Notes: generated by a model not told the origin, from the letters alone. 64,000 nucleotides of DNA from Victivallales bacterium (GCA_045114455.1 JBGUKN010000072.1:945-64944); one strand, 5' to 3'. Shown: positions 4,135 through 55,431, numbered from the stretch's first letter. Program-made: numbers and translations.

Positions 4135-4153
4135 ATCGGGGCTCCGGTCCGGT

Positions 4154-6670
<2,517 letters not shown>

Positions 6671-6718
6671 GTCGTTTCTTTCCTGCGATGTCTTATTCCG
6701 TTCTTTATCAGAAAGTTC

Positions 6719-6738
6719 GGGACGCGTCGACGCGTCCC
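6719..6738. repeat. Perfect 20-bp palindrome GGGACGCGTCGACGCGTCCC between the upstream gene stop and the clpC start
   Basis: Read directly from the sequence. It lies 49 nt upstream of the clpC ATG on the minus strand. It could be a terminator of the 6895-7743 gene or an operator. Confidence 0.35.
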
Positions 6739-6894
6739 GGTCCGTCCCTCTTTCCCCGCCCGCCGGTTCAGCTCATACGGCCCGATACGCCGGGCCTGTT
6801 CATGCCATACGGCGGTCCGTCCGCTTCAGCCGGAGAGGGAATTGCCCCCTCCTGGCCCGCTGCGGACGAAATCCGGGGTACAGGCAAACTCAGC

Positions 6895-11451: not shown

Positions 11452-11566
11452 GATAACCTCTTTCGACCAAAACGATGCGGACGCCGACCCGCGGGCCGTT
11501 CCGCTTTTCTCATACCATTTATTATGATTACAATACACGCGCGCCCTGATTTTTTCAAGCATCGTT

Positions 11567-13242: not shown

Positions 13243-13572
13243 ATGGAAGTTCGGGCAGTAACAAGGTATGTCCGCATTGCTCCGTCCAAGGGTATGGATT
13301 TCTCCCGGGTCATCCAGGGAAAGCCCTACGCCGAGGCACTTGCGATCGCGGAACTTTCCCCGAGAAAGGCCGCCAAGCTGTTCGCCAAGACGCTCAAATG
13401 CGCCAAGGCGGCCGCAGCCGAAAGCGGAATGAACGAAGCGTCCCTGATGGTCAAAACCGCAGTCGCGGACCCCGGTCCGATGCTGAAGCGGTTCCGTCCG
13501 AAGGCACGCGGCATGGCGGGCAGAATCCGCAAACGCATGAGCCACTTCACGGTGGTTCTTACTGACGACTGA
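13243..13572 (+). CDS. rplV: 50S ribosomal protein L22
   Basis: MEVRAVTRYVRIAPSKGMDF...RFRPKARGMAGRIRKRMSHFTVVL. First gene of the cluster. Confidence 0.95.
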   Translation: MEVRAVTRYVRIAPSKGMDFSRVIQGKPYAEALAIAELSPRKAAKLFAKTLKCAKAAAAESGMNEASLMVKTAVADPGPMLKRFRPKARGMAGRIRKRMSHFTVVLTDD

Positions 13573-13589
13573 GATGAAAGGAAGTCACA

Positions 13590-14291
13590 GTGGGACAGAA
13601 AATTAATCCAATCGGGCTCAGACTTGCCCTGAACAAGAATTGGTGCTCCCGTTGGTTCGCCCGCAAGGACAACTTCGGGACGTGGCTTCACGAAGACCGC
13701 AAGGTCCGCACCTTCATCAAGAAGAACTACAATCAGGCCGCGATCTCCAACATCCTGATCGAACGCTACTTCAACCGCGTTCGCACCACCATCTTCGCCG
13801 CACGCCCGGGCGTCCTGCTCGGCAAAAAGGGCGGCAAGGATGCCGAGATCGACAGACTGCGCGACGAAGTGAGCAAGCTGCTCGACAAGGGCCAGGAGCT
13901 CATCGTCGACGTCATCGAGGTCAAGCAGCCTGAGACCAACGCCCAGCTGGTCGCCGAAAACGTCGCCGCCCAGCTCGAACGCCGCATCGGTTTCCGCCGT
14001 GCCATGAAGAAGGCCATCCAGACCGCCATGGAACTCGGCGCCGAAGGCGTCAAAATCCAGTGCTCCGGCCGCCTCGGCGCCGCTGAACTGGCCCGCACGG
14101 AAACCTACAAGGAAGGGCGCACGCCGCTTCAGACCCTGAAGGCTTTCATCGATTACGGATTCACCGAAGCCAACACGACCGCCGGCAAAATCGGCGTGAA
14201 GGTTTGGATCTGCCACAAGGAACTCACGGAGGAAATGCAAAATGCCGTTAATGCCAAAAAGAGTAAAGCACAGAAAGGTGCAGCGCGGTAA
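13590..14291 (+). CDS. rpsC: 30S ribosomal protein S3
   Basis: GTG start after [29 protein letters not shown] and S3-C domains. Confidence 0.95.
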
Positions 14292-14661
14292 TAACGCCGG
14301 GCTGTCCCAACGCTGCAACAAACTGGATTTCGGCGATTTCGGATTGCAGACGTTTGAGCGCGGCTTCCTGACCGCCGCCCAGATCGAAGCCGCCCGTGTC
14401 GCGATTACCCGCCATATGAAACGCCGCGGCCAGGTGTGGATCCGCCTGTTCCCGTACAAGCCCTGCACGAAGAAGCCCCTGGAAGTCCGTATGGGTAAGG
14501 GCAAAGGCAACGTCGAATACTGGGTCGCTCCGGTTCAGCCCGGCCGCATGCTTTTCGAGATCTCCGGCTGCTCCGAGACCCTCGCGAAGGAGGCCATGAG
14601 CCTCGCCGCTTCCAAGCTCCCGATCCGCTGCCGCTTCGTCTCCCGGATCCCGGCCGTCTAA
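14242..14661 (+). CDS. rplP: 50S ribosomal protein L16
   Basis: [16 protein letters not shown]...[19 protein letters not shown] lies 9 nt upstream. Overlaps the rpsC 3' end by 50 nt. Confidence 0.95.
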
Positions 14662-41255: not shown

Positions 41256-41300
41256 ATTCGATTCGCTTCTTTTTCGAAGCGATCAAACTGATTCAGGTTA

Positions 41301-41332
41301 AACCGCCGTATCGGAAAACGGCGGTTTTTTTG
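41301..41332 (+). terminator. Rho-independent terminator after jag
   Basis: AACCGCCGT / ACGGCGGTT 9-bp stem, 8-nt loop, then TTTTTTTG. Confidence 0.75.
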
Positions 41333-41582: not shown

Positions 41583-41610
41583 TTGATTTTTCCCTGTTGG
41601 GGGCTATATT
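41583..41610 (+). promoter_or_regulatory. Sigma-70-like promoter of the STAS/polysaccharide operon
   Basis: TTGATT (41583-41588), 16-nt spacer, TATATT (41605-41610), followed by the 5'-UTR hairpin GTCTCC-ACACGG-GGAGAC. Confidence 0.5.
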
Positions 41611-41669
41611 ATACTAAATATTGTCTCCACACGGGGAGACGGAAACTGCTAATCAGGAAGAAAACATCC

Positions 41670-42008
41670 ATGGAAATTTCCAACTTTGAAAACGACGGGA
41701 TAGAAATCATCCAGATCAAAGGGCATCTTTCTGCAGAAAATGCGGAAACTCTCCGGTCCAAATTTCTCGAACTGTTCGCCACCCAGCGGAAATTCGTGTT
41801 TGATCTTTCCGAGATGGAAAATCTGGACAGCACGGGGCTTGGAGCTCTGGTCTTCTGTCTGAAAAGCTGTACGGAATTCAACGGAACATTGATTCTGGCG
41901 AATTTAACGCAGCGTGCAAGAATGATTTTTGAGATCACGAAGGCGTACCGCATTTTTGATATTTACGACGAGCTTGACGAGGCGATCAAGGCAGCCCGCG
42001 AAGCATAA
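41670..42008 (+). CDS. STAS-domain anti-sigma-factor antagonist (SpoIIAA/RsbV-like)
   Basis: The ATG at 41670 gives a 112-aa protein. FDLSEMENLDSTGLGALV carries the conserved DS(T)G phospho-serine motif. ARMIFEITKAYRIFDIY. Confidence 0.85.
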   Translation: MEISNFENDGIEIIQIKGHLSAENAETLRSKFLELFATQRKFVFDLSEMENLDSTGLGALVFCLKSCTEFNGTLILANLTQRARMIFEITKAYRIFDIYDELDEAIKAAREA

Positions 42009-42014
42009 CCCCCG

Positions 42015-42028
42015 GCGGACGCGTCCGC
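42015..42028. repeat. Perfect 14-bp palindrome GCGGACGCGTCCGC just after the STAS stop
   Basis: Read directly. It is followed by an A-run, not a T-run, so it is not a classic terminator on the plus strand. Confidence 0.4.
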
Positions 42029-42081
42029 ACAAAAAGAAACCGCATAGGAGATGTGGGGATTTTGAACTTGGAGGCTGAACA

Positions 42082-42879
42082 ATGAGGCAGAACCGCCCGG
42101 AATCAGCAAGACAGGCACCCCAGGCCATGAAGCGGGATGAACAAACATCCGGCTTCGGTGCGTCTTTCCTGCAAGGCGACATTCCGTTTCTTGCCGGAAC
42201 GAAGTCTCCCTGTGCCAAACGATATGCGCTTATTCGCACGCGCAGCAAAAAGCTTTTCAAATTTCTTTCCATCGGTTGCAATCGCGTTTTCAAGCGCTGG
42301 ATGGATATCTGCGGCAGTTTGACGGCAATAACCCTGTTGTCCCCTGTTTTCGTCTTCGTCGCAATCTGGCTCAAACTCGATTCGCCCGGTCCGCTCATCT
42401 ACCGCCAGATCAGAGTCGGCCAATACGGACGCCCGTTCTATTTCTACAAGTTCCGCTCCATGTACATTGACTCCGACGCCCGTCGACTCGCGCTGGAAAA
42501 GGAGAACGAGTCCAAAGACGGCGTGATTTTCAAGATGAAAAACGATCCCCGGATCACAAGATGCGGTCGCTTTATCCGCAAATACAGCATCGACGAAACG
42601 CCGCAATTCTTCAATGTCCTTCTTGGTGACATGAGTCTGGTCGGCCCCCGGCCGCCGCTCCCCTCGGAAGTGGCACAATACACCCTTGACGATCGGAAAC
42701 GCCTGGATATTCTGCCGGGAATCACCTGTATTTGGCAGATTTCCGGGCGCAGCGACATCCCGTTCCGGGAACAGGTCGTCCTTGACAGGGAATACATCCG
42801 CGGGCAGGGCTTCTGGAAAGACGTCCTGATCCTGTTCAAGACGATTCCCGCGGTGATATCGGGAAAAGGAGCGTACTGA
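42082..42879 (+). CDS. Undecaprenyl-phosphate sugar-phosphate transferase (small bacterial sugar transferase, priming enzyme)
   Basis: KRWMDICGSLTAITLLSPVFVFVAIWLKLDSPGPLIYRQIRVGQYGRPFYFYKFRSM, DETPQFFNVLLGDMSLVGPRPP, PGITCIWQISGRSD. Confidence 0.9.
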   Translation: MRQNRPESARQAPQAMKRDEQTSGFGASFLQGDIPFLAGTKSPCAKRYALIRTRSKKLFKFLSIGCNRVFKRWMDICGSLTAITLLSPVFVFVAIWLKLDSPGPLIYRQIRVGQYGRPFYFYKFRSMYIDSDARRLALEKENESKDGVIFKMKNDPRITRCGRFIRKYSIDETPQFFNVLLGDMSLVGPRPPLPSEVAQYTLDDRKRLDILPGITCIWQISGRSDIPFREQVVLDREYIRGQGFWKDVLILFKTIPAVISGKGAY

Positions 42880-42880
42880 C

Positions 42881-44305
42881 ATGACAAAAGCGATCCTTTT
42901 CTGCTCAACACACGAAAACGCATGGCTGAAAGAGTATTTCCCGAATCACCCGGTTTATTTGCTTCCGTTCGCAAACAAACCAGCCATTGAGTATATTCTG
43001 GACTATTGTTTCCTTTGCGGGATCCATGATGTTAGAATCGTATCCGACGAAGAATCCGAAGCTCTGCGCGCCCAATACCGCAACGGCGAAATGCTGAGCA
43101 TGAACATCTCCTTCGGAAGCGTGAACTCCGCGTGTTCGGTCAGACGCGTCATCCTGCAAAACAAAGCTTTCTGCAGGGGCAGCGACATCCTGTTTTTCTC
43201 CGGCCTTTTCCTGCCCGAATATGACAAACGGATGCCGAACGAGCCGGGCATCGGCGCGGATGAACTGAAGGGATGCGTCTATGAAAACGGAAGCGCAGCC
43301 TGGTATCTGATCGGGCGGAACAGACTGGACAGCCTCCCGGACAAATGGGACGGTTTTCACGACGAAACTCCCGTCAGCGGCCAACCGGTCACGGATATTC
43401 TCGGCTATTACCGCCACAACATGCGTCTGGCCGGTCCCGACATCGAAAAATACAATTTGCCCGGTTTTCGTGAAGGTAAGAACAGTTACGTGGGGTATGA
43501 CGTTCAAATCCCGGGATCGGCCAGGATCCGACCGCCCGTAATTCTCGGAAACGGGATACAGTTTGGACGCAAAGCGCATGCCGGACCGAATGTGATTATC
43601 GGGGACAACTGCATCATCGACAACGGTACGACGATCCGGGACTCCATTGTTTTCGGCAACACCTACATCGGACGTGACCTGGAGATCAACGGGAAGATCT
43701 GTTGCGCAAATTGCATCATCGACCCGCAAACCGGAACCAGCATCAACCTTGCCAATCCGTCTGTCATCTCCGAAATGGAACCGGACGAATATGAAAAAAA
43801 ATCTTTTCTTCAACGTTTTCTGGCAGTTGTGCTGCTGCTGTTCCAGACGCCCCTCTATCTCCTGCTGAGGCCCTTTGTGGAGTTTCATTTTTCCCTGACG
43901 GAGTGTCTGACCGGCAGAGGAAACACTCGCACACTGGCATTGGACGGATATGCACTGCCGCGGGAAAGCATTGCCGGAAGTCTGTTCCACAGGTTCACAC
44001 TGAACAAATACCATCTTCTGCCGTATGCGGCAGCCGGGAAAATGCGGCTGGTCGGAAGCCATCTGCTGGAAGCGACCGAACACAACGAGCAGTTCATCCG
44101 GGATCTTCCAGGGTATGCACCCGGCATTTTTTCCTACAGCGAATACCTCGGCCATGAAAATGAGCCTTATCAATTTGAACTTGACGAGCAGTATTATGCA
44201 TATGCTATGAACTGCTGGTTTAACATCAAGATTTTGGCGGGAATCCTGCGGCGCAATCTGAGACGGGAAAACCGCAGCCTGCAACAGAGAGGAGCTATCG
44301 AATAA
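42881..44305 (+). CDS. Fusion protein: degenerate nucleotidyltransferase-like N-domain, hexapeptide-repeat (LbH) domain, TM segment, and degenerate sugar-transferase-like C-domain
   Basis: LLPFANKPAIEYILDYCFLCGIHDVRIV resembles sugar-1-P nucleotidyltransferases, but the GxGTRL loop is replaced by CSTHENAWL. The LbH run is ILGNGIQFG...IIGDNCIIDNGTTIRDSIVFGNTYIG. The C-terminus parallels the neighbouring transferase: MRLVGSHLL versus MSLVGPRPP, PGIFSYSE versus PGITCIWQ, and NKYHLLPY in place of DETPQFF. Confidence 0.6.
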   Translation: MTKAILFCSTHENAWLKEYFPNHPVYLLPFANKPAIEYILDYCFLCGIHDVRIVSDEESEALRAQYRNGEMLSMNISFGSVNSACSVRRVILQNKAFCRGSDILFFSGLFLPEYDKRMPNEPGIGADELKGCVYENGSAAWYLIGRNRLDSLPDKWDGFHDETPVSGQPVTDILGYYRHNMRLAGPDIEKYNLPGFREGKNSYVGYDVQIPGSARIRPPVILGNGIQFGRKAHAGPNVIIGDNCIIDNGTTIRDSIVFGNTYIGRDLEINGKICCANCIIDPQTGTSINLANPSVISEMEPDEYEKKSFLQRFLAVVLLLFQTPLYLLLRPFVEFHFSLTECLTGRGNTRTLALDGYALPRESIAGSLFHRFTLNKYHLLPYAAAGKMRLVGSHLLEATEHNEQFIRDLPGYAPGIFSYSEYLGHENEPYQFELDEQYYAYAMNCWFNIKILAGILRRNLRRENRSLQQRGAIE

Positions 44306-46395
44306 TGATTTTAACCGACCATGAAGATCCCGCCATCGAAGCAACCGCCGACAATTCCACTCCCACGGCAGAACAAAGATCTCTTCCCGTTTTCGTACAG
44401 ATTATTTATCTCTTCAAACGGGATATCTGGTGCTGGATCAATGCAGTCCAGAAAATGTGGTGGCTTTTCATCCTTGCTCCGCTGCTGTTCGCCTGTGCCA
44501 CTTTCTTTTTCAGAACCATGACGACCACCAACGTGTATGTGGCAAACTGCGGATTGATCCGCCAGGCCGTCGACACGCGGGACGGCGTTCTTCCTCCGGG
44601 ATATACGAATGTTCAGAGATCGATCATTATGAATCTTTTCAAGACCCGTGCAGTTTTGGAGGAGACCATCAAGCGGCTCAGCCTGCCGTATTCGTCCGAA
44701 CAGCTCTACAACAGCATTACCATCAAGGTGGAAAAGAATTCCGATTACTACGTTATCTCGGCTTCTTCAAAAGACCCGACGATTTCCGCCGCTTTGGCCA
44801 ATACCCTGGCCGACGTTTTCATTGAAGAATACAAAAAACTGATCCGGCGAAATCTGGAAGATCTGAACGACAGCTATGTGAGAACTCAGAATGAAATGGA
44901 AAAATTGCTGGCCGAGCAGGATGAGAAATTGAAAAAAATCAACGCCGAAAACAATCTGACAACCATTGAGAACGATATCGCCTTCAACAATCAGAGACTG
45001 CTTCAGATTGAAGACCAGCTGACTCGCAAATCGTCCTCGCTCGATTCCGCGAAACAGGCTCTGTTCGAGCTTCAGGGAGAACTGGTCAACACCCCGGAAG
45101 AAGTCGTGTCAAAAAGAGTAACAAGCACAGCAGTGGAAGACGAACTTTTGCGTGCGGAGAATCTGTTGCTTGAATACGAACAGGTCTATGCAAAAAACAA
45201 TCCCCTTTTGATCCAGCAGCGGGAAATCGTCAAAAAACTTAAGGCTGAAAAAGATCGGCTGAAAGAAGAAGAAGAAGAAGGCTCGAACGAAATCAATAAA
45301 CATGTCGAGGTCACCCGCAATCCGGCATATACACAAATTCAGGTGGCCATAGCCGCAAAAAAAGCCGAAATCTCCTCCCTTACCAACGATATCAAGCTCA
45401 ATAATGACAATGCGATTCAGCTGCGTGCGCGCCGCGAACTTCTGGCCGCGCTTCAGCCGACTCTCCGTCAGCTCGAAACCGATATCCAGCAAACGAAGAC
45501 CCAGCTCAACAACACGAAAGTCCAGATCACCACGATCAACAGCTTTTTGAGCCGCTCTTTCTCCGACATCTCCATTCAGGAACTTGCGAAAACACCCAAA
45601 GTCCCCCTCGGACGCAAACGCGGCATCTGGACTGTCGTCGGATTCATACTCGGAACCTTTTTGGCCTTTTCCATTACTTTCGTGTGCGAAATGTTCAACC
45701 TGACAGTTCGCTCCAACGTTGATATTGAACAGGCCCTCGGGATCAGAATGCTCGGAATGATCCCGCTTCTGGATCAGAAGCATCGCGCGGACTACTACAG
45801 TGCGCTGCAGACAATGACCAGTAATGGAAAGCTTTTCTTCACCCATGCATCGCCCGAGCATCCGGGTCTGATTGTATTCGCTCCGGACAAACGAACCGAT
45901 CAGGATGAAAAGATTCTGGAAGAATTCTGCGAAACGCTGAAAGTCCGCACGGGAAACAACTACGTCGTCATTTCTCCGATCAAAGAGGAGGACTTCTCCA
46001 TGAAACAGATGCCTCTTCTTATCAACGACTATTTATATCAGTTCACGGACACGGCGCCAAAACCTGGAAAAGACCATAAGGTTTTCTTCAGGCTGGACGA
46101 CCTTTCCTTTGTTTCGCCTCTTTCGGACGAACAGGTCCAGCGGATAAGAAATGCATATCAGTCCAAATCCATTTCGCTTATCATATGGGATCTTTTCGAG
46201 TTTGAACAGCATAGACAGCTTTTTGCGGAAATTGCCCGCAACGCCGATCTTACGGTCATTCCGATGAAATATGCACAGACTTCGAAAGTGAATATTTTCC
46301 GAATACTCCAGTTCCTGAGGTCTTTCCAGGTCAAAAATATTTTCGGATTCCTCCATAACGTCAATAACAAGCATTACAGCAAGGTGACATTATGA
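44305..46395 (+). CDS. Polysaccharide co-polymerase (Wzc/GumC-like, PCP-2a architecture) with a degenerate C-terminal kinase-like domain
   Basis: TM1, Wzz-like region, long coiled coil, TM2 (IWTVVGFILGTFLAFSITFV), then a P-loop-fold-like domain. That domain has VFAPDKRTDQDEK where Walker A GxxGxGK[ST] is expected, and there is no C-terminal Tyr cluster. The ATG overlaps the upstream stop. Confidence 0.75.
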   Translation: MILTDHEDPAIEATADNSTPTAEQRSLPVFVQIIYLFKRDIWCWINAVQKMWWLFILAPLLFACATFFFRTMTTTNVYVANCGLIRQAVDTRDGVLPPGYTNVQRSIIMNLFKTRAVLEETIKRLSLPYSSEQLYNSITIKVEKNSDYYVISASSKDPTISAALANTLADVFIEEYKKLIRRNLEDLNDSYVRTQNEMEKLLAEQDEKLKKINAENNLTTIENDIAFNNQRLLQIEDQLTRKSSSLDSAKQALFELQGELVNTPEEVVSKRVTSTAVEDELLRAENLLLEYEQVYAKNNPLLIQQREIVKKLKAEKDRLKEEEEEGSNEINKHVEVTRNPAYTQIQVAIAAKKAEISSLTNDIKLNNDNAIQLRARRELLAALQPTLRQLETDIQQTKTQLNNTKVQITTINSFLSRSFSDISIQELAKTPKVPLGRKRGIWTVVGFILGTFLAFSITFVCEMFNLTVRSNVDIEQALGIRMLGMIPLLDQKHRADYYSALQTMTSNGKLFFTHASPEHPGLIVFAPDKRTDQDEKILEEFCETLKVRTGNNYVVISPIKEEDFSMKQMPLLINDYLYQFTDTAPKPGKDHKVFFRLDDLSFVSPLSDEQVQRIRNAYQSKSISLIIWDLFEFEQHRQLFAEIARNADLTVIPMKYAQTSKVNIFRILQFLRSFQVKNIFGFLHNVNNKHYSKVTL

Positions 46396-47447
46396 TTTTC
46401 AAAGCCTCTCGTTTTCTGCGTTTTTTCCTGCCTGCCGTCTCCTTTGTCATAACTGCATGCAATACTACTCCGTTCGGAGGAATCGCCGTTCCCAGCATGA
46501 CATCCGTTGAACCCAAACAGGACGGGGATGCTTATGCCATTCAGGAGGAATTGAAAGCGCTGCATACCGTAAATACCACCCCTTATATCATTCGTCCCGG
46601 AGATACGTTCCAAATGTCCGTCTATAATCAGCCGACTCTCACCACAAGTGTGCTGATTGCACCGGACGGAACGACCAGTCTTCCTCTGATCGGCATTTTG
46701 AAACTCAGCGGAATGAACATGGAAGACGCCATGAATTTGATAGAAAAGAAGTTTTCCGCCTATTTGAAGTCTCCATATGTCACTTTGGCTCCTTTGTCGG
46801 TAAGCGGTTACTATTTCACGATTGCGGGCCGAGTCGTGAGACCCGGCAACTACACGGTGTCCCTCGGACAAACCAAGATGCTTGATGCAATCGCTCTTTC
46901 CGGCGGTTTTCAAACGGGGTCACTTAACGGCGACACGGTCGAGCTCGCCGATCTGGACAACGCCTATATCAAGCGCGACGGGAAAAAACTGCCTGTAGAC
47001 TTCAGAAAACTTGTTTATGAAGGAGACGATCTGCAAAACATTCCTGTTTTGAACGGGGATTATATCTATGTGCCGTCGACGATCAATGGGTCCATTATTT
47101 TCCTCGGGGAAGTCGGACGGAACACATATGTCGGGTTCTCGGAAGGAATGACGCTGTTGCAGGGACTTTCCTACACGAACGGCTTGAATACAGCCTCATA
47201 CAGTTCCATCATTCGCATTATCCGCGGCGGCCTGAATAACACTGTCGTTTATACCGTTGATGTCGACCTGATTCTGAAAGGAAAGATGAGGGATTTCAAG
47301 CTGAATGCGAACGACATCGTTTATGTACCGCAAGACGGGCTCACAAAATGGAACCTGATGATCAAGAAACTCCTGCCGACACTTCAGTTCTTCAATCTGC
47401 TGGCCGGTCCGTTCGGATCCAATATACGCGGGTTTTTCGATCTTTGA
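46392..47447 (+). CDS. Polysaccharide export outer-membrane lipoprotein (Wza-like: Poly_export plus SLBB domains)
   Basis: Lipobox AVSFVITAC. YIIRPGDTFQMSVYNQP...IAPDGTTSLPLIGILKLSGMNMED. The ATGA overlap with the upstream gene suggests translational coupling. Confidence 0.85.
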   Translation: MIFKASRFLRFFLPAVSFVITACNTTPFGGIAVPSMTSVEPKQDGDAYAIQEELKALHTVNTTPYIIRPGDTFQMSVYNQPTLTTSVLIAPDGTTSLPLIGILKLSGMNMEDAMNLIEKKFSAYLKSPYVTLAPLSVSGYYFTIAGRVVRPGNYTVSLGQTKMLDAIALSGGFQTGSLNGDTVELADLDNAYIKRDGKKLPVDFRKLVYEGDDLQNIPVLNGDYIYVPSTINGSIIFLGEVGRNTYVGFSEGMTLLQGLSYTNGLNTASYSSIIRIIRGGLNNTVVYTVDVDLILKGKMRDFKLNANDIVYVPQDGLTKWNLMIKKLLPTLQFFNLLAGPFGSNIRGFFDL

Positions 47448-47482
47448 TATGAATCACGGGGGCATTGCAGGGGAAAAGCCAT

Positions 47483-49072
47483 ATGCTTAAAACCGTTGAA
47501 GTTTTGTTCTTTTTCCTGTTCTTTCTGCCTTTCCTGACAGCATTGGCCTGGATATTTCCGTTTCTCCGGCACGTTTACTTTACAGGAATGTTTTTTTTCA
47601 CCTGCAAAGAGATTTCCTTCGGCATCATGACGATTATGTGGAAAGGGACGGCACGCGCCTATACGTTCACGGCCGTATTCCTTTTTGCTGTTCCGCTGTT
47701 TTTCAGTATGGTCTTGGACTGGAAGACGAAGGTACGGTTTTTTCCTCCCGGTTCCATATTTTACTTTCTTTACTTCCTGTCCGTTCTGATTTCCGGAGTA
47801 AACGCCGTCCACATGCATCAATGGGGATTTGAAGTCTACAAAATGCTTTGGATGTACTTCGTCTTCATAGCGGCATTCAACTATCTGAACCATTGCAAGG
47901 ACCTCATTTTTCCCATTTATATGGTATGCATTATCCTGATTTATCTTTTTCTGGTTGGCTTCGACCAGAAATACAGGCTGGGAAGCATTCAAGTCCATTC
48001 GACATTTCCGCATCAGAACTCCCTGGCGCTGTATCTGGAGCTCCTGGGGCTTCTTTCGTTTGGCGTTCTGCTGAACGAGCATATGAGCAAATTGCTGTTC
48101 TGTCTCTGTCTGTTTGCTTTCGGCAGCTCCGTCCTCCTGATCCTTTTTACCTATTCCAGAGGAGCCCTGGTCACTTATTTCGGAGGTATTGCCATTGTTT
48201 GCGCGGCTTCCATATTGTTCAATGGCTTCTCCATTAGGCGGCTGACTCTTCTTCTGATCGGAATGATTGTCCTGCTGTGTGTGGTCGGTTATGCCTTGCC
48301 GAACATCATCAAACGGTTCACCGGTGCGTCGCCGGCTTCCAAAAACACAAGAATCGCGCTTGCCATCGCATCCAAAAAAATGGCAAATGATTATCCTTTA
48401 GGAGTTGGAGCCAACAATTACAGCGAGTATTCCGGATACAACTACGATTATGCCATTCAGGAGAACTATTCTCCACGGAAGGAACGTGGCGGAATCGTGG
48501 AAACCATCTACCTGCTTGTCGCGGCGGAATGCGGATGGTACGGCCTCGGCCTTCTGCTTCTCTGGTTTTTTTATTATTACTTTTCTCTCATCGTAAGCAT
48601 GTTTGTCCTTCGGAAAAAGCCATGTTCCGGCATCGTGATCGGACTCTTCGGCGGCCTTACCTGCATTTACTGGCATTCCACGCTTGAATGGAGCATGAAA
48701 CAGCCTAACAACTTCTCGGAACAAATGGTCATTTATGGGCTGATAGCCGCCATTGCAGTCAACCGCAAAAAGATCAAAGCCGCTTATCAACGACAGCTTG
48801 CCCGGGAAGCGGAACAGGAAAAAAAGAAAAAAAAGAAGGACGAAAAATCAATGGCAAGCCAATATTCGCTGCCGCTTCTGCCGGGAAGACAGTTCATGCT
48901 TTCTGTGGACACTGATAGTCTGCACTCTCAGATTCCTCCGACCATGAAGCCTGTCGACACGGCGCCCGAATCGTCCGGTGCTCAGGATGGACAGGAGCAG
49001 GTTCCTTCCATAAATCCCGCCGACGTGGATCTCGAATCGTCCGATGCTCGGGATGGACAGGGGCAGGAATAG
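47483..49072 (+). CDS. O-antigen ligase/polymerase-family (Wzy_C) membrane protein with a charged repeat-containing C-terminal tail
   Basis: More than 10 TM helices and FTYSRGALVTYFGG, typical of the Wzy_C loop. The tail has K-rich QEKKKKKKDEK and two ESS(G/D)A(Q/R)DGQ repeats. A TTG at 47465 is an alternative start. Confidence 0.75.
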   Translation: MLKTVEVLFFFLFFLPFLTALAWIFPFLRHVYFTGMFFFTCKEISFGIMTIMWKGTARAYTFTAVFLFAVPLFFSMVLDWKTKVRFFPPGSIFYFLYFLSVLISGVNAVHMHQWGFEVYKMLWMYFVFIAAFNYLNHCKDLIFPIYMVCIILIYLFLVGFDQKYRLGSIQVHSTFPHQNSLALYLELLGLLSFGVLLNEHMSKLLFCLCLFAFGSSVLLILFTYSRGALVTYFGGIAIVCAASILFNGFSIRRLTLLLIGMIVLLCVVGYALPNIIKRFTGASPASKNTRIALAIASKKMANDYPLGVGANNYSEYSGYNYDYAIQENYSPRKERGGIVETIYLLVAAECGWYGLGLLLLWFFYYYFSLIVSMFVLRKKPCSGIVIGLFGGLTCIYWHSTLEWSMKQPNNFSEQMVIYGLIAAIAVNRKKIKAAYQRQLAREAEQEKKKKKKDEKSMASQYSLPLLPGRQFMLSVDTDSLHSQIPPTMKPVDTAPESSGAQDGQEQVPSINPADVDLESSDARDGQGQE

Positions 49073-49101: not shown

Positions 49102-50256
49102 ATGAAGATCGCCGATAGAATGCACTGTACCGGATGCGGAGCCTGTGCGGATGCATGTCCGGCCGCCTGCATTTCCATGAAAGCATCGGAGGAAGGCTTC
49201 TGGTTTCCGGTCGTCGAGGAATCGCGATGCAGGGATTGCGGAATCTGCGGGACTGTCTGCCATGTTTTGAATCCTCCCGGAAAAAAAAGTCCGGAAAAAG
49301 CATTTGCCGCCTGGTCTTTGGATGAATCCGTACGAACGTCCAGTTCCTCCGGCGGCGTCTATTCCGTTCTTGGGGAATATATCCTTGAAAACGGCGGCGC
49401 AATCAGCGGTTGCCGTTTTGACGGGGACATGGTTCTGAAGCACGAACTGTGCGACCGGCCGGGCGGCACGGTTCACTTCCGCGGATCGAAATACGTTCAG
49501 TGTTTTACGGACGGAATCTACCGGATAATCCGTGACGAGCTTGCAAAAGGCAGAACGGTTCTTTTCACCGGTACGCCGTGTCAGGCCGCCGGATTGCGGG
49601 CCTATTTGGGGCGACCGTATGAGAATCTGATCGTCTGCGATCTGGTCTGTCACGGCGTCCCAAGCCAGAAGATATTCAGAAGCTACCTGAAACGGCATGA
49701 TCTGTCTCCTGATCCAGATCGTTCGGTCATCGCGTTCCGCGACCTGAACGGCTGGGGCGACTTTTATATTCGGATCATGGACCGGGGCAATCTTCAATGG
49801 CACTCCGACGATGCGACGAACGAATACATCCGTGCATTTCTGTCCGGATACGATTATAATGAAGCCTGCTACGAATGCCCCTATGCCTGCATGGAGAGGA
49901 CAGGAGATCTGACGCTTGCGGATTTCTGGGGGCTCGGAAAAAGCATCCCCTTTGACGGAGACCCGTCGCACGGCTGTTCCCTGATTCTTGTCAATACGGA
50001 AAAAGGCGGAGACCTGCTTCAAAACGTGCGGGACAGGCTGTTCCTGGAAGAACGGACATTGGAGGAAGCCCGGCAGGGAAACGGCCAGTTGAGGGCGCCA
50101 GTGCCAAGACAGCCGATGCGCGATACGTTTTACCGGATGGACTGGGCAGGAATTGCACGCAAGATCAACTATGGAAATCCCTCCCCTCTCCGCAGGCTGC
50201 TCCGTGTCTGCAAACGGACCGTTCTGAATATACTTCCGTGCGGAAGCAGAAAATGA
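49102..50256 (+). CDS. FrhB/FdhB-like Fe-S protein (coenzyme F420 hydrogenase beta-subunit family, polysaccharide-locus type)
   Basis: N-terminal CTGCGACADACP and CRDCGICGTVC ferredoxin motifs, followed by SSSGGVYSVL and GTPCQAAGLR, characteristic of the FrhB_FdhB C-domain. Confidence 0.7.
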   Translation: MKIADRMHCTGCGACADACPAACISMKASEEGFWFPVVEESRCRDCGICGTVCHVLNPPGKKSPEKAFAAWSLDESVRTSSSSGGVYSVLGEYILENGGAISGCRFDGDMVLKHELCDRPGGTVHFRGSKYVQCFTDGIYRIIRDELAKGRTVLFTGTPCQAAGLRAYLGRPYENLIVCDLVCHGVPSQKIFRSYLKRHDLSPDPDRSVIAFRDLNGWGDFYIRIMDRGNLQWHSDDATNEYIRAFLSGYDYNEACYECPYACMERTGDLTLADFWGLGKSIPFDGDPSHGCSLILVNTEKGGDLLQNVRDRLFLEERTLEEARQGNGQLRAPVPRQPMRDTFYRMDWAGIARKINYGNPSPLRRLLRVCKRTVLNILPCGSRK

Positions 50257-50310: not shown

Positions 50311-51525
50311 ATGAAAATACTCTTAGGCGGCGTGCCGTTCGGCTGCGACAATATCGGCGACGAGGCAATCCTTGCCTCCGTAATCGGTCTCCTGCGCGAG
50401 ATATACCCGGATGCAGAACTCATCGTAAGTACCGGTGACCGCACCGGGACGGAACGCAAATTCGGGGTGAAGACCGTCCCTCTGTACGGATTTGACCCTG
50501 CGGCGCCCGCGGCGCGTCTGACCGAGGCGCTGGACGGCATCAATTTCTATATCTGGGCGGGTGCTACCGGACTGTCCGATTATCCGGAAATGGCCTGCAC
50601 ACTGCTTGAAACCGCTCAGGAAAAGGGCGTCCGGACGATCGTCTGGAATGTCGGGATGAACGATGTTTTCAATCCGGCTTTCTTCTCGCTTCACGGAAAA
50701 AAGAAAACGCTGGCGAACGCGGTAAAAACATGTTTCGGATTCGACTGGGAAAAACGCTGGATCGAACGGCGTGTCCACGCTATCCGGCAGAGATTGGCAC
50801 GCACCCTCGGACGCTGCGATCTGATCGTCCTCCGCGACCGGAAATCTCTGGAAGTGCTCCGCTTGTGCGCGCCGTTCCCGGACGCCGTCGCCGGAGCCGA
50901 CACCGCCATCCTGCAGAAACAGTGTCCGGCGGACGCTCTCCCCTGGAACGCATCTGAACAAGAAGTTTTCCGGTCTGCCTCCGCACGGATGGCCGTCTGC
51001 GTGTCGGAGCAGAACCGGATCCGTGAATTCGACCGGTTTACAGGCTGGCTCGACGGCATCCTGGAAACGCATCCCGGACTGCTTGTCGTGACGATCCCGA
51101 TGAACCCGAAAACGGATTTCCGGGTCATGGAGGAGATGAAGCGGCGCTCGAACTATCCCGACCGCATCCTGTCGACCCGCTTCCTTGAGCCGGAGGAAGT
51201 CCAGGCCGTCGCGGCGGACTGCTCCGTCATCGTCAGCAGCCGTCTGCATCTGCTAATCCTGGGGCTGAACAACCTGGTGCCCGGCGTCGGCATCGCACGC
51301 GGAAGCAAAATCGAGTATTTCCTTTCCCGGTTCGGCCTTACGACCGCGGGGACCACCGACGATCTCGACCTTCCCCGCCTGACCGAATCCGTGGATTGGG
51401 CGCTGACGCATCAGGACGAATTCAAACAAAGCGCCGCATCCGTCCGTGCCGGTTTGCTGGAAGACCTGAAACGGGCGGAAACACTTTTGAAACAGACATT
51501 GGAAAGCCCGCGTCCGCCCCGGTAG
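50311..51525 (+). CDS. Polysaccharide pyruvyl transferase (CsaB/WcaK family)
   Basis: NIGDEAILASVIGLL at the N-terminus and VSSRLHLLILGLNNLVPGVGI near the C-terminus. AAGGAG SD. Confidence 0.8.
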   Translation: MKILLGGVPFGCDNIGDEAILASVIGLLREIYPDAELIVSTGDRTGTERKFGVKTVPLYGFDPAAPAARLTEALDGINFYIWAGATGLSDYPEMACTLLETAQEKGVRTIVWNVGMNDVFNPAFFSLHGKKKTLANAVKTCFGFDWEKRWIERRVHAIRQRLARTLGRCDLIVLRDRKSLEVLRLCAPFPDAVAGADTAILQKQCPADALPWNASEQEVFRSASARMAVCVSEQNRIREFDRFTGWLDGILETHPGLLVVTIPMNPKTDFRVMEEMKRRSNYPDRILSTRFLEPEEVQAVAADCSVIVSSRLHLLILGLNNLVPGVGIARGSKIEYFLSRFGLTTAGTTDDLDLPRLTESVDWALTHQDEFKQSAASVRAGLLEDLKRAETLLKQTLESPRPPR

Positions 51526-51569
51526 ACGCACCTCGTTCTTCCCCGCATTCCAATCCCGGATGCATCAAC

Positions 51570-52937
51570 ATGGCACTCTTCGGAAAAATCATTGCCTGGA
51601 TCCTGCGGAACATCCTCACCATCGCCGCGATCACCGTGATCCTGTGTCTGCTTTCGCCCGGGATCCGCGTCGCTAAGGACAACGCCGCGAAACTGACGGA
51701 ACAGCGTGACGCGCTTCTCGACGGCATCCGGTCGGTCGAGGACGAGATCGCGAAAACGAAGGAATCGCTCGAAAGCCGCCTCTCCATGCTGGACCACTGG
51801 CGCGAACAAAGACGGGAATGTCTGGAAAAGATCGATGCCCTGCCCAACGCCTGGCTGCATCCGATCGACCACTGGTCCGAATACACCCGGCTCACAACGG
51901 AACAGAAACGTCTGGAACTTCAGATCGACACGCTGGAATCCACGATCGCGCGGTACAGGGATTCCCTCGCCCAGCTCGACAAAAACCGCCGGATGATGAT
52001 CTTTCAGCTCGACAGCGTGACGCAGTCCATTACGGAATCCGTCTCGCGGGAGTGGAACAGAAACGGCCTCAGGATCCTGCTGTTCACGATCTGCTTCGTG
52101 CTGCTCACGCCGCCTCTCTGGCTCGTGTTCATGTATTACTGCGTCGCCGCGCTCGTCGAGAAATTCCCGCCGATCCGCATCAGGCTCAAAGGCGACGACG
52201 GCGGGCACGAGCCCGTATTCCACCGCTCCGCGCGCAGCATCACGTTTTCGATCCCGGAAGGCCGCACGTTCTATCTGCGGGCGCAGGGCGGCGACTGGGG
52301 CAAAGAACGCCGCGATGTCGTCTGCCGGACCAAATTCATGTGGCGCTGGGGAGCGCCGCTCGTTTCGATCGCGTCGGACCTCGTGGAGCTCCTCGCATAC
52401 CGCAGCGAACCGGGCGCGAAGACCCCCGGCCAGATCAAGATGACCTCGCCGAAGGACGACGAGGTGTACATTCAGCAGATCGAGCTCAACGGCGGTCCCG
52501 GACTCGTCCTGACGCCGCGCCATGTGATCGGCCTGACCGATGACGTGGAGGTCCGCACGGTCTGGAGCTTCAAGCTCCACAACCTCATTTCCATGCGCCT
52601 GCGCCACATCGTTTTTTTCGGCACGGGCACGATCTTCATCATCGGTGGACGCGGCATCGACGTCCAGCGGATCGAGCCGGGTTCCAGCGCGGTCCACAAG
52701 ATCGAGGACGGCGTGCTCGTCGGCTATGTGCCCGGCGCGGCGTATTCTCTCTGCCGCACGCAGACCTTCTGGGCGTATTTCCGCGGGATGACCTCGCTGC
52801 TGGACTACAAGCTCTGCGGCGGCACCTTCCTCACGCAGAACCTGGTCGGACGAAGCGAAAAGGAAGTCCTCGGAAGCGGCCTCGACCGGTTCCTCTCCGT
52901 CCTGCTGAACGGCATCGGGAAACTCCTCGGATTCTGA
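51570..52937 (+). CDS. Membrane protein: N-terminal TM, coiled coil of about 140 aa, TM hairpin, beta-rich C-terminal domain (AIM24-like?)
   Basis: MALFGKIIAWILRNILTIAAITVILCLL, heptad-like LTEQRDALLDGIRSVEDEIAKTKESLESRL, and LRILLFTICFVLLTPPLWLVFMYYCVAALV. The C-terminal FFGTGTIFIIGGRGIDVQRIEPGSSAVHKIEDGVLVGY resembles the AIM24/DUF124 pattern. No SD was seen. Confidence 0.5.
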   Translation: MALFGKIIAWILRNILTIAAITVILCLLSPGIRVAKDNAAKLTEQRDALLDGIRSVEDEIAKTKESLESRLSMLDHWREQRRECLEKIDALPNAWLHPIDHWSEYTRLTTEQKRLELQIDTLESTIARYRDSLAQLDKNRRMMIFQLDSVTQSITESVSREWNRNGLRILLFTICFVLLTPPLWLVFMYYCVAALVEKFPPIRIRLKGDDGGHEPVFHRSARSITFSIPEGRTFYLRAQGGDWGKERRDVVCRTKFMWRWGAPLVSIASDLVELLAYRSEPGAKTPGQIKMTSPKDDEVYIQQIELNGGPGLVLTPRHVIGLTDDVEVRTVWSFKLHNLISMRLRHIVFFGTGTIFIIGGRGIDVQRIEPGSSAVHKIEDGVLVGYVPGAAYSLCRTQTFWAYFRGMTSLLDYKLCGGTFLTQNLVGRSEKEVLGSGLDRFLSVLLNGIGKLLGF

Positions 52938-53035: not shown

Positions 53036-53149
53036 AACAGTATGGTTTTGTTCGAAAAGAAAAAAGCGGGCTGAATCATAGTCAATTCTAAAAAATGAAA
53101 CCACATTTGTCCGGCACGCTGAATATTGGCTGGACCGAAGGAGAAGTGT

Positions 53150-54529
53150 ATGGGGCGGTTATTCGGGACGGACGGCATCCGCGGCAAAGCAAATGAGTAT
53201 CCTATCACGCCGGAGCTCGCCCTGCTGGCGGGAAAAGCCGTCGCGCGGCATTTCTGCCGGAACACGTCCCGGAACGACGCCTTCGGCCAGCGCGGCAATC
53301 CGCGCGCCATCATCGGCAAGGACACGCGCATCTCCGGCTACATGCTCGAAACCGCGCTCGTGAGCGGCCTGGTGAGCATGGGCATGGACGCCTATGAAAT
53401 CGGGCCGATGCCGACGCCCGCCGTCGCCAGCCTCACGAAATCCATGTGCGCCGACTGCGGCGTCATGATCACCGCCTCCCACAACCCCGCCTCCGACAAC
53501 GGCATCAAGCTGTTCAGCGCCGACGGGTTCAAGCTCCCGGACGAGGTCGAGGACGACATCGAGCGCGCCATCTTCGCCATGATGGAGCATCCCGCCGACG
53601 GCACGCCGGATCTCGGCAAGGCGTTCCGTGTGGACGACGCTCGCGGCCGCTACATCCATCAGGCGAAACGCGCCATCGGCTACACCTCGCTGAAGGGCAT
53701 GAAGGTGGTGCTGGACTGCGCGAACGGCGCGTCCTACTATGTGGCACCGATCGTGCTGCGCGAACTGGGCGCCGAGGTCATTGCCACAGGCGTAAAGCCG
53801 GACGGCCTCAACATCAACAACGGCTGCGGCGCGCTCCACCCGGAAAACATGTGCCGTCTGGTGAAAGAGCACGGCGCGGACATCGGCGTGTCGTTCGACG
53901 GCGATGCCGACCGCGTGCAGTTCTGCGACCACACCGGGGCCGTCATCAACTGCGACCGCATCATCGGCCTGTGCGCGCTGGACTACAAATCGCGCGGCCA
54001 GCTCTGCAACGACACGGTCGCCGTCACGTCCATCAGCAACCTCGGACTGCACGACGCCATGCGTCAGGCGGGCATCAAAGTCGAAGTCACCAACGTCGGC
54101 GACCGTTACGTGATCGAGCGCATGCGCGAAAAAGGGCTGAACCTGGGCGGCGAGCAGACCGGACACCTGATCTTCCTGGAGCATTCTCCGACCGGTGACG
54201 GCCTCATCTCCGCCCTGCATGTGATGCGCATCATGAAGGAGACCGGAAAATCCATCGCCGGGCTCGCCGCGTTCATGCGGGAGTATCCGCAGATCCAGAG
54301 TTCGCTCCGCATCGCCGAACGCGTCCCGTTCGACGACCTGCCGGAGCTCTCCAAGTGCATCCGCGAGGCAAAACAGGACCTCGGGGACGCCGGACGCGTG
54401 ATCGTGCGCTATTCCGGCACCGAAAACAAACTTCGTATTCTCGCCGAAGCCAAAACGGAATCCGCCGCACGGCTCTGGCATGACAAAATAGCGGGCGTAG
54501 CGGCCCGCGAACTGGAGGTAATCCCATAA
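53150..54529 (+). CDS. glmM: Phosphoglucosamine mutase
   Basis: MGRLFGTDGIRGKAN, ITASHNPASDNGIKLF (active-site Ser), GVSFDGDADR, GGEQTGH. AAGGAG SD before the ATG at 53150. Confidence 0.93.
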   Translation: MGRLFGTDGIRGKANEYPITPELALLAGKAVARHFCRNTSRNDAFGQRGNPRAIIGKDTRISGYMLETALVSGLVSMGMDAYEIGPMPTPAVASLTKSMCADCGVMITASHNPASDNGIKLFSADGFKLPDEVEDDIERAIFAMMEHPADGTPDLGKAFRVDDARGRYIHQAKRAIGYTSLKGMKVVLDCANGASYYVAPIVLRELGAEVIATGVKPDGLNINNGCGALHPENMCRLVKEHGADIGVSFDGDADRVQFCDHTGAVINCDRIIGLCALDYKSRGQLCNDTVAVTSISNLGLHDAMRQAGIKVEVTNVGDRYVIERMREKGLNLGGEQTGHLIFLEHSPTGDGLISALHVMRIMKETGKSIAGLAAFMREYPQIQSSLRIAERVPFDDLPELSKCIREAKQDLGDAGRVIVRYSGTENKLRILAEAKTESAARLWHDKIAGVAARELEVIP

Positions 54530-55431
54530 TGGCATCGTTCGCATTCGAAATCTTCGAGCATGGCAATCCCGTCCTGCTGGAACCCCTGACCTGCAAAAAG
54601 CCCGCGCTGGAGCTGGAACTCGCCGCCGGCACGCTGGAATCCACCCTGCTGAGCCGCTGGTCCTCGATCCAGGATTCCGCCGCCCCCGGCACCCGTCTCC
54701 GCCTCGCCTCCGACTTCTGGCCCTCCAAGGCCCTGCTGGAAAAAGCAGCAGCCGCGCTCATCACAGGGCAGGCATTCTCCGTGACCGACGCCGACGGCGT
54801 GGCCGCCGAATGCACCGGATGCGGCGCAAACACCGTGTCCATCCCCGCCGACGAAGCATCCTTCCGCATCCGCTATCCGTGGGATCTGCTGAAGGTCAAC
54901 GAGGAGTACCTCGCGGGCTACACCGAGAACGTGATCAACGGCACCGTGCGCGAACGCGTCACGCTCGACGGCGTGGTGATCCTGGGCGAAGGCTCCGTGC
55001 TGCTCCCGGGCGTCTACATCGAGGGCGTCGCCGTGATCGGCAAGAACTGCAAGATCGGCCCGAACTGCTACCTGCGCGGCTACAACTTCATCTCCGACAA
55101 ATGCCACATCGGACAGGCCGTCGAGATCAAGAACTCCATCCTCATGACGCACGTCGCCGCAGGACACCTCTCCTACATCGGCGACTCCATCGTCTGCCAG
55201 AACGTGAACTTCGGCGCCGGCACCATCACCTCGAATTTCCGCCACGACGGCAAGAACCACCGTTCCATGGTCCAGGGCAGCCTCATCGACACCGGCCGCC
55301 GCAAATTCGGCTCCATCATCGGCGAGAACGTCCACACCGGCATCCACACCGCCATCTACCCGGGACGCAAGATCTGGGCCGACGTCCAGACCCGCCCCGG
55401 CGACGTGGTTCAGCTCGACCTGATGAGATAA
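54529..55431 (+). CDS. GlmU-C-terminal-like hexapeptide-repeat acetyltransferase (no recognisable uridylyltransferase domain)
   Basis: A long LbH run ends in NFGAGTITSNFRHDGKNH...IGENVHTGIHTAIYPG, like the GlcN-1-P acetyltransferase half of GlmU. The N-terminal 115 aa or so lack a GxGTR(K) loop. The ATG overlaps the glmM stop (TAATG). Confidence 0.65.
   Translation: MASFAFEIFEHGNPVLLEPLTCKKPALELELAAGTLESTLLSRWSSIQDSAAPGTRLRLASDFWPSKALLEKAAAALITGQAFSVTDADGVAAECTGCGANTVSIPADEASFRIRYPWDLLKVNEEYLAGYTENVINGTVRERVTLDGVVILGEGSVLLPGVYIEGVAVIGKNCKIGPNCYLRGYNFISDKCHIGQAVEIKNSILMTHVAAGHLSYIGDSIVCQNVNFGAGTITSNFRHDGKNHRSMVQGSLIDTGRRKFGSIIGENVHTGIHTAIYPGRKIWADVQTRPGDVVQLDLMR

Follow-up and report, generated by a model that had tools for sequence, protein, structure and literature searches.

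In Vibrio fischeri, the syp locus begins with the gene for SypA, a STAS protein that is active when unphosphorylated and works post-transcriptionally; SypE, which combines a receiver with kinase and phosphatase outputs, switches it (PMC4517449). SypA has been proposed to bind an unidentified partner, and in V. parahaemolyticus and V. vulnificus, sypA is present and sypE is absent (PMC4517449). SypA is reported to be unlikely to act as an anti-anti-sigma factor (PMC4517449, PMC11112999), and according to a 2024 review, the level at which it acts is still unknown (PMC11112999). Here, we describe a polysaccharide locus of a Victivallales bacterium in which a STAS protein of this type heads an operon that also encodes a small priming phosphoglycosyl transferase (PGT) and a predicted double pseudoenzyme, which we call FUS. 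The locus was read within a single 64,000-nucleotide (nt) stretch of DNA (GCA_045114455.1 JBGUKN010000072.1:945-64944), termed the window, and its coordinates are window positions.

STAS domains can also be joined to a sugar transferase. In Anabaena, All4160 carries an N-terminal STAS domain fused to Bac_transf, and it is inactivated by serine phosphorylation (bioRxiv 10.64898/2026.04.08.717354; Mol Microbiol 2026) and reactivated by HenR, a REC-SpoIIE phosphatase (bioRxiv 10.64898/2026.04.08.717354). XssP and All2285 are similar STAS-Bac_transf fusions of cyanobacteria, and in Anabaena the kinase and phosphatase genes are unlinked from that of the STAS target (bioRxiv 10.64898/2026.04.08.717354). 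These systems feature an RsbW-type kinase set against HenR, an active unphosphorylated form, and action on the enzyme itself, not via a sigma factor.

Two further lines of work bear on the proteins considered below. In Myxococcus xanthus, phosphorylated EpsW activates the PGT EpsZ by direct binding, and small monotopic PGTs (monoPGTs) are reported to be monomers and large ones dimers (PMC12802240). EcpK and HfsB are pseudokinases of the bacterial tyrosine kinase (BY-kinase) type that serve as phosphorylation-independent scaffolds and work without any STAS protein, and non-canonical polysaccharide co-polymerases (PCPs) of class PCP-2a have been recognized by sequence as lacking catalytic residues (PMC12004946). 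We found no functional study of a fused, dead-kinase PCP-2a protein in the literature.

A STAS, PGT, and FUS unit in Lentisphaeria

The plus strand from 41.3 to 51.5 kb reads, by its open reading frames (ORFs), as one tightly packed polysaccharide gene set in the order STAS, PGT, FUS, co-polymerase, Wza, Wzy, FrhB-like protein, and pyruvyl transferase. A scan of one genome per species yielded 23 related loci, all from Lentisphaeria; the scan relied on a narrow FUS alignment (A2), since a more divergent one (A1) lacked any conserved stretch, and this choice biases the 23 loci towards Lentisphaeria. STAS heads the order STAS-PGT-FUS-PCP-Wza-Wzy in 20 of the 21 loci whose upstream sequence is available, so the STAS gene does co-occur with the locus in related genomes, and the region is a core operon, conserved in Lentisphaeria (Victivallales), for making a capsule or exopolysaccharide by a Wzy-dependent pathway.

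Divergent loci (given by L numbers) keep a smaller set of genes together. L025 has STAS-PGT and L027 has STAS-PGT-FUS, while L029 to L031 have PGT-STAS-FUS, with the co-polymerase, Wza, and Wzy three genes on. In L019, the STAS stop codon overlaps the start of a gene with Response_reg, SpoIIE, and HATPase_c_2 domains, which is followed by five glycosyltransferases, the PGT, and FUS, and within 10 kb there is neither a co-polymerase nor Wza or Wzy. L036 encodes a SypE-like protein, PGT, STAS, and FUS with overlapping stop and start codons and without export genes. In L037, SypE-like, PGT, and FUS genes precede, after an interval, co-polymerase, Wza, and Wzy on one strand, and STAS heads a divergent glycosyltransferase operon on the other. 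Across these divergent lineages, STAS lies beside the PGT and/or FUS and next to the co-polymerase in none; STAS, PGT, and FUS are the invariant unit, found together in every lineage.

The STAS protein begins at ATG 41670, with AGGAAG just before it. A start at TTG 41583, as in the ORF listing and the first-pass annotation, was rejected because this TTG belongs to the -35 hexamer of a promoter-like site. The protein matches PF01740 (E = 1.6e-18, 66.8 bits, cutoff 22.6) and TIGR00377 (58 bits, cutoff 53.45), and its nearest solved relatives are the anti-sigma antagonists TM1442, SpoIIAA, and RsbV. Its LDSTGLG motif, which aligns on MDSAGLG of TM1442, holds the phosphorylatable serine (Ser53), a residue that is invariant in 22 orthologues and present too in L029, L036, and L037. 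The C-terminal motif MIFEITKAYRIFDIYD is conserved, and its FEIT-A-RIFDIYD pattern is invariant across the clade. STAS is the most conserved protein of the locus, with 94-99% identity where FUS has 65-75% and 57-72% where FUS has 35-41%, and together with the PGT it makes up the best-conserved pair in related loci. An exhaustive search found generic STAS proteins of ~110 aa beyond the clade; below about 45% identity, gene contexts likewise turn generic, and those of relatives P0256, P0257, and P0259 are unrelated or uninformative.

The resemblance to SypA, which is one of locus and architecture, not of sequence comparison, lies in a single-domain STAS protein encoded first in a Wzy-type locus and carrying a conserved serine. 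To our knowledge, the syp locus has no FUS-like protein. An orphan STAS gene without a linked sypE occurs both in other Vibrio species and in the clade of the window.

The PGT matches Bac_transf strongly (E = 3e-63, 213 bits, cutoff 27), and its KFRSM, D171-E172, and GPRP motifs are invariant in 15 orthologues, which predicts a catalytically intact enzyme. STAS and PGT are separate ORFs: the STAS stop is at 42008, and the PGT starts at 42082 with its own GGAGG. As in All4160, XssP, and All2285, STAS is thus associated with a monotopic PGT, but here the genes are separate (in PGT-STAS order in relatives), FUS is a third partner, and the window STAS and the fusion proteins are not close homologues. 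EpsW-EpsZ likewise pairs a small single-domain phospho-switch protein with the initiating PGT of a Wzx/Wzy pathway; there, however, the switch is a receiver that is active when phosphorylated and the PGT is a large, dimeric monoPGT, whereas here the components are STAS and a small PGT.

The 73-nt spacer between STAS and PGT (42009-42081) includes a GC-rich palindrome, GCGGACGCGTCCGC, that lacks a T-run and has no Rfam match. This palindrome may raise the STAS:PGT expression ratio.

FUS consists of a sugar-1-phosphate nucleotidyltransferase fold (residues 1-190), a left-handed beta-helix (LbH; about 200-290), a membrane helix (308-332), and a PGT-like region (about 333-462). Its family matches are limited to LbH/hexapeptide entries, Pfam LbH_EIF2B and GMPPB_C among them, and a weak match to rmlA_long; the NCBIfam match covers only residues 23-106. 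An AlphaFold2 (AF2) model has a predicted local distance difference test (pLDDT) score of 78 overall and 80-94 for residues 1-190, and a Foldseek search with the N terminus returned tlr0611, RmlA, GalU, eIF2B, and GMPPA/B (E = 1e-6 to 7e-11). The G-x-G-T-R(L) loop and the following catalytic lysine are lacking; the N terminus reads ILFCSTHENAWL...VYLLPFANKP, by a correspondence drawn by eye. CSTHENAW stands in place of the glycine-rich loop, the family consensus has no glycine-rich loop, and GxGTR occurs in no member.

The C-terminal domain of FUS aligns with the profile of the locus PGT (hhalign E = 4.5e-5), its matches among Protein Data Bank (PDB) sequences are PglC and WbaP only, and PF02397 (Bac_transf) still scores on 8 distant family members. 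KFRSM and GPRP are gone, and the Asp-Glu dyad of the PGT is replaced by Asn-Lys in the window protein; its relatives show Asp-Lys, Asp-Arg, Asp-Leu, or Arg-Ile, and the dyad is never intact. By its sequence, this domain is a predicted pseudo-PGT, a membrane-anchored paralogue of the PGT. Both catalytic signatures are lost, and the idea of an active bifunctional enzyme was rejected.

GMPPA, which is itself inactive but senses GDP-mannose and regulates its paralogue GMPPB, and the gamma and epsilon subunits of eIF2B offer the closest parallels, in that FUS residues 1-290 match a nucleotidyltransferase plus LbH structurally and have lost the nucleotide-binding signature. FUS differs from them in being membrane anchored and fused to a dead PGT domain, and the likeness is one of predicted fold. 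Its 114 database relatives all come from Lentisphaeria/Victivallaceae metagenomes and are nearly all unnamed or "hypothetical," with one labelled "NDP-sugar synthase." We found no description of the FUS architecture in the literature, though the PGT-fusion survey of O'Toole et al. 2021 might mention a nucleotidyltransferase-PGT class. The double-pseudoenzyme family and its linkage to STAS and a small PGT appear to be undescribed.

Some divergent loci hold further genes around FUS. A uridine-kinase/phosphoribulokinase-family gene directly follows FUS in three of them (L019:11392-12021, L029:9007-9615, and L031:4714-5322) and is itself followed by a gene for a ~375-aa protein without a Pfam match; both are absent from the window locus. 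L037 has a 350-aa gene without a Pfam match in the corresponding place after FUS, a likeness of position. The same three loci encode a WecG/TagA-family glycosyltransferase (L019:7830-9161, L029:5224-6522, and L031:931-2229) whose N-terminal piece shows weak similarity to just the C-terminal half of Bac_transf; this piece is a second PGT-derived module, probably non-catalytic.

SypE-like enzymes and the co-polymerase

A Pfam scan of the 49 window ORFs found no HATPase_c_2 and no SpoIIE/PP2C domain, and hence no RsbW-type kinase or PP2C phosphatase; the GHKL domain of HtpG and one phosphotransferase of the APH family were all that it turned up. Searching the window by tblastn with SypE-like queries gave nothing. 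A pooled Pfam scan of 125 ORFs from the flanks of loci of the clade, together with tblastn, found no recurrent kinase or phosphatase there. The clade flanks otherwise hold TPR proteins, in L011 and L016.

A phospho-switch input is plausible even though the window has none because close STAS relatives adjoin REC-PP2C-RsbW-type enzymes. SypE-like kinase/phosphatase genes lie beside STAS, PGT, or FUS genes in four divergent contigs (L019:1740-3377, L028:1-681, L036:1-1485, and L037:6561-8258), and their products share 22-33% identity with one another. Those of L019 and L037 have a full complement of Response_reg, SpoIIE (PP2C), and HATPase_c_2; that of L028, encoded ahead of STAS, has SpoIIE and HATPase_c_2, with its N terminus off the contig; and that of L036 was assigned by tblastn similarity alone. 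The domain content is that of Vibrio SypE, but the order apparently differs. SypE runs kinase-REC-PP2C, whereas the order in the relatives is REC-PP2C-kinase. Fusions of receiver, serine kinase, and serine phosphatase beside STAS relatives (by homology only in L036, and with the receiver end off the contig in L028) are a second likeness to the SypA/SypE system, from which the clade of the window differs in having no linked kinase or phosphatase.

One clade member, L012, carries a gene for a 1573-aa hybrid histidine kinase (PAS-HisKA-HATPase_c-Response_reg) immediately upstream of STAS (L012:3955-8673). L013 has an ORF of equal size and position (L013:3902-8632), which was covered by the pooled scan only. 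By analogy with what has been proposed for HenR, the L012 kinase could be a sensor that feeds a receiver-containing phosphatase.

Farther down the operon, the co-polymerase matches TIGR03007, TIGR01006, and TIGR03017 at E = 1e-16 to 1e-23, below the equivalog cutoffs; the TIGR03007 match (E = 1.5e-23) spans residues 132-494, and residues 495-696 are unmatched. Two transmembrane helices (hydrophobic stretches at about 52-70 and 440-465) flank a coiled-coil periplasmic domain. For the C-terminal domain, AF2 gave a model of moderate confidence (pLDDT 65, predicted template modeling score 0.69), which Foldseek placed with the BY-kinases Wzc, Etk, CapAB, and BceF (lowest E = 6e-5, template modeling score 0.5-0.63), about 45 of the top 50 matches being BY-kinases at probability 1.0.

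No member of the co-polymerase family (0/23) has a Walker A GK[ST] at the P-loop position, where the window sequence APDKRTDQDEK stands opposite GVSPSIGKT of Escherichia coli Wzc and GSVNPETGKS of L029, and a Walker-B-like WD/WE is the only Walker motif left. A divergent co-polymerase, that of L029, retains GKS at this position with the same STAS present. None of the 23 orthologues has a C-terminal tyrosine cluster: 22 of them have 1-2 tyrosines in the last 25 residues, versus 7 in the last 17 of E. coli Wzc. A profile of the C-terminal domain gave only spurious repeat matches against PDB sequences, and an hhalign comparison with the kinase domain of E. coli Wzc was not significant (E = 0.47) and paired up the Walker B region alone. 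Because sequence homology to Wzc is not significant, the BY-kinase assignment draws on the fold and on the bridging L029 sequence. A homologue search with the domain returned 15 fragments, and the full-length relatives listed all had at least 66% identity, so the alignment behind the structural model is shallow. Like EcpK, HfsB, and the non-canonical PCP-2a proteins, the predicted domain thus combines a BY-kinase fold with the loss of catalytic residues and of a Tyr-rich tail. EcpK and HfsB differ in being stand-alone proteins that pair with kinase-less co-polymerases, whereas the dead domain in the window is fused, as in PCP-2a.

A first-pass annotation of this DNA had described the same cast, namely, an operon-leading STAS protein that keeps the DSTG phospho-serine motif, a canonical priming sugar transferase, a third protein in which nucleotidyltransferase-like and sugar-transferase-like domains are both dead, a Wzc-like protein without Walker A or Tyr tail, and Wza and Wzy-like proteins completing the export operon, with no cognate RsbW/SpoIIAB-type kinase or PP2C phosphatase in the window. 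These descriptions agree with the family, fold, motif, and search results given here, and alignment uncovered no cryptic Walker A motif or Asp-Glu dyad, so the pseudoenzyme calls stand.

Candidate control of the priming step

We propose that STAS acts on priming through the PGT or a PGT-FUS complex, that a SypE-like enzyme sets its state, that FUS is non-catalytic, and that the pseudokinase of the co-polymerase works separately, a reading that we hold to be moderately probable. Unphosphorylated STAS would bind the PGT or the PGT-FUS complex at the cytoplasmic face of the membrane and turn priming on, providing in trans what All4160 and XssP have in cis, and phosphorylation of the STAS serine would turn priming off. 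The responsible kinase/phosphatase would be of the REC-PP2C-RsbW type that is adjacent in divergent relatives and is presumably encoded elsewhere in the genome. FUS would be a regulatory or scaffolding subunit whose GMPPA/eIF2B-like domain may sense a nucleotide sugar, and the pseudokinase would be a phosphorylation-independent scaffold like EcpK and HfsB. The initiation step is preferred over the pseudokinase as the STAS target because of the synteny of STAS, PGT, and FUS and the published STAS-PGT fusions All4160 and XssP. More tentatively, the three proteins might form a priming checkpoint in which the dead PGT pairs with the live one at the membrane, the dead nucleotidyltransferase reports nucleotide-sugar supply, and STAS, set by a SypE-like kinase/phosphatase, licenses the complex; we consider this fuller version possible but on balance doubtful.

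Several observations weigh against the proposal of STAS control at priming. No kinase or phosphatase of this kind was found in the window or within 10 kb in the 22 loci of the clade, and phospho-control may have been lost in the lineage of the window. Small monoPGTs are reported as functional monomers (PMC12802240), which makes a PGT-FUS heterocomplex conjectural. No STAS-PGT fusion is obvious among the top 150 STAS relatives, as judged by protein length only, so the link to All4160 is one of architecture and not of close homology. The pseudokinase model is of moderate confidence, its relation to Wzc not being significant by sequence, and a second STAS contact with the co-polymerase would be compatible with the gene adjacency data.

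A rival reading, after the first-pass annotation, would put the switch at that very contact: STAS would bind the co-polymerase through its dead kinase domain, and the STAS phospho-cycle would replace Wzc autophosphorylation in gating polymerization and export. STAS proteins do bind nucleotide-binding partners such as SpoIIAB and MlaF. The co-polymerase does carry a BY-kinase-fold domain devoid of P-loop and Tyr tail, the window encodes no Wzb-type phosphatase or separate BY-kinase, and STAS and the co-polymerase share one operon in most loci. Yet the STAS gene adjoins the co-polymerase gene in no locus, and L019 and L036 have STAS, PGT, and FUS with no co-polymerase, Wza, or Wzy nearby. The GKS of the L029 co-polymerase occurs alongside STAS, which means that STAS recruitment is not tied to P-loop loss; known BY-pseudokinases function without STAS; and STAS-PGT fusions have been published, whereas no STAS-PCP fusion was seen among the top STAS matches, by length only. 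The idea that partner switching has taken over from BY-kinase cycling is contradicted by gene order and by L019, L036, and L029, with nothing positive in its favor, and we rate it as the least probable of the readings considered here.

Classical partner switching, in which STAS would antagonize an unlinked RsbW-type anti-sigma kinase and so govern transcription of the operon through an alternative sigma factor, without touching a biosynthetic protein, would suit the TIGR00377 match, the solved relatives TM1442, SpoIIAA, and RsbV, which are true anti-sigma antagonists, and the HATPase_c_2 domains that adjoin STAS relatives. The adjacent enzymes, however, are SypE-like REC-PP2C-kinase fusions instead of small RsbW-sigma pairs, and the loci examined showed no gene for a sigma factor or an anti-sigma protein. 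SypA itself is reported to be an unlikely anti-anti-sigma factor, the operon promoter is sigma-70-like (by consensus match only), and the tight but permuted linkage to PGT and FUS, with codon overlaps in L036, suggests a protein complex, all of which makes a transcriptional role improbable. Alternatively, STAS could serve the priming complex as a structural subunit that is constitutive and non-phosphorylated; the kinase/phosphatase of its ancestors would have been lost, with no switch remaining. The window and the 22 loci of its clade have no SypE-like gene, while four divergent lineages have one adjacent, and V. parahaemolyticus and V. vulnificus likewise lack sypE. Against such a loss, the whole clade keeps the serine and its DSTG surroundings unchanged, under very strong purifying selection, the kinase and phosphatase genes are unlinked from the STAS target in Anabaena, and the kinase search covered only about 64 kb of the genome; a purely structural role is accordingly unlikely, and we retain STAS control of priming as the preferred reading.

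The candidate "new regulatory architecture" of the first-pass annotation was overstated, given that SypA, EcpK/HfsB, the non-canonical members of class PCP-2a, and EpsW are all published; each element has a published counterpart, and the regulation is not of a new kind. The FUS family and the STAS-PGT-FUS core both appear to be undescribed. The split, trans version of the STAS-PGT relation also appears to be new, as does its spread across Lentisphaeria together with a fused BY-pseudokinase co-polymerase. Priming uses scarce undecaprenyl phosphate, and its control in bacteria is only now emerging (EpsW 2025, All4160 2026). If true, the checkpoint would name the kind of partner proposed for SypA-type STAS proteins since 2013 and add a pseudoenzyme class to PGT regulation. 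The conserved set of STAS, small PGT, and double pseudoenzyme also makes a specific, testable prediction about the SypA target, and STAS control of polysaccharide synthesis would extend to the Planctomycetes-Verrucomicrobia-Chlamydiae (PVC) superphylum, including abundant rumen and gut Lentisphaeria. Moreover, the fused example would join the recently defined class of phosphorylation-independent co-polymerases, and an unannotated family of about 114 proteins is now defined as a nucleotidyltransferase-like/PGT-like pseudoenzyme.

Locus layout and neighboring genes

The features of the locus are collected in Table 1. Its junctions are as tight as had been annotated at the outset. At the PGT/FUS junction (42877-42883), the stop codon TGA is followed by one base (C) and the FUS ATG; FUS and the co-polymerase overlap in TAATG (44303-44307), and the co-polymerase and Wza overlap in ATGA (46392-46395). 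An independent pipeline's gene call on an identical contig has the same products, of 265, 474, 696, 351, 529, 384, and 404 aa.

Table 1. Features of the polysaccharide locus, in window coordinates
Feature	Position	Strand	Basis or remark
Intrinsic terminator-like hairpin	41300..41327	+	10 bp stem then T-run; sequence read
Putative sigma-70-like promoter	41583..41610	+	TTGATT, 16 nt spacer, TATATT; consensus match only
STAS protein, SpoIIAA/RsbV/SypA type, 112 aa	41670..42008	+	PF01740, TIGR00377
Small monotopic PGT, priming enzyme, 265 aa	42082..42879	+	Bac_transf, TIGR03025
FUS, 474 aa	42881..44305	+	AF2 model, Foldseek, hhalign
PCP-2a-like co-polymerase, 696 aa	44305..46395	+	TIGR03007; AF2/Foldseek
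Predicted BY-pseudokinase domain, residues about 470-696	45712-46392	+	Foldseek to BY-kinases
Wza-type outer-membrane export lipoprotein	46392..47447	+	Poly_export, SLBB, lipobox ITAC
Wzy-like polymerase (O-antigen ligase family), 529 aa	47483..49072	+	Wzy_C; pipeline gene call
FrhB/FdhB-like 4Fe-4S protein	49102..50256	+	Present only in closest relatives, alongside pyruvyl transferase
Polysaccharide pyruvyl transferase	50311..51525	+	PS_pyruv_trans E = 7e-22

The hairpin closes the upstream rnpA-yidD-yidC-jag unit and marks the 5' boundary of the locus, and an A-rich tract precedes the promoter-like site. Scanned against Rfam, the leader and the spacer between STAS and PGT gave no credible match, and hence no riboswitch. 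Wza has only a weak Wza_C match (E = 0.006). The Wzy-like protein, a polytopic membrane protein with a charged, non-conserved C-terminal tail, matches Wzy_C (E = 1e-10, 42.1 bits, cutoff 31.7) and probably starts at 47483, versus TTG 47465 in the ORF listing. The operon extends past Wzy through the FrhB-like and pyruvyl transferase genes to 51525, and a pyruvyl transferase follows Wzy, directly or via the FrhB-like gene, in 13 of the 23 related loci.

The window locus encodes no Wzx flippase and no glycosyltransferase except the PGT, so the enzymes for the repeat unit must be encoded elsewhere; L019, L029, and L037 have glycosyltransferases of families GT2/GT4 in the operon. The genes from STAS through Wzy (41670-49072) have a G+C content of 46-55%, and the flanks have 58-64%. 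Glycoside hydrolase family 9 (GH9) genes with CelD_N adjoin the locus in L015 (4282-6930, minus strand), L020 (5141-7858, minus strand), and L037 (15945-18509) and may encode glycanases that trim the polysaccharide.

Elsewhere in the window, three long ORFs with high third-position G+C (3662-6913; 10039-11562 and 13326-14510, both on the minus strand; 1083, 507, and 394 aa) have no Pfam match at E <= 1e-4 and may be lineage-specific proteins or mis-called frames. Just beyond the operon, 51570-52937 (51396-52937 in the ORF listing) encodes a coiled-coil membrane protein of 455-513 aa with no credible family match; its 80-89% identity in seven close relatives is above that of most of the polysaccharide genes, and it is absent from distant loci. 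A phosphoglucomutase/phosphomannomutase gene and then one for a 300-aa LbH_EIF2B/hexapeptide protein lie just downstream of the locus (53126-55431), and these genes may supply a sugar nucleotide for the pathway.

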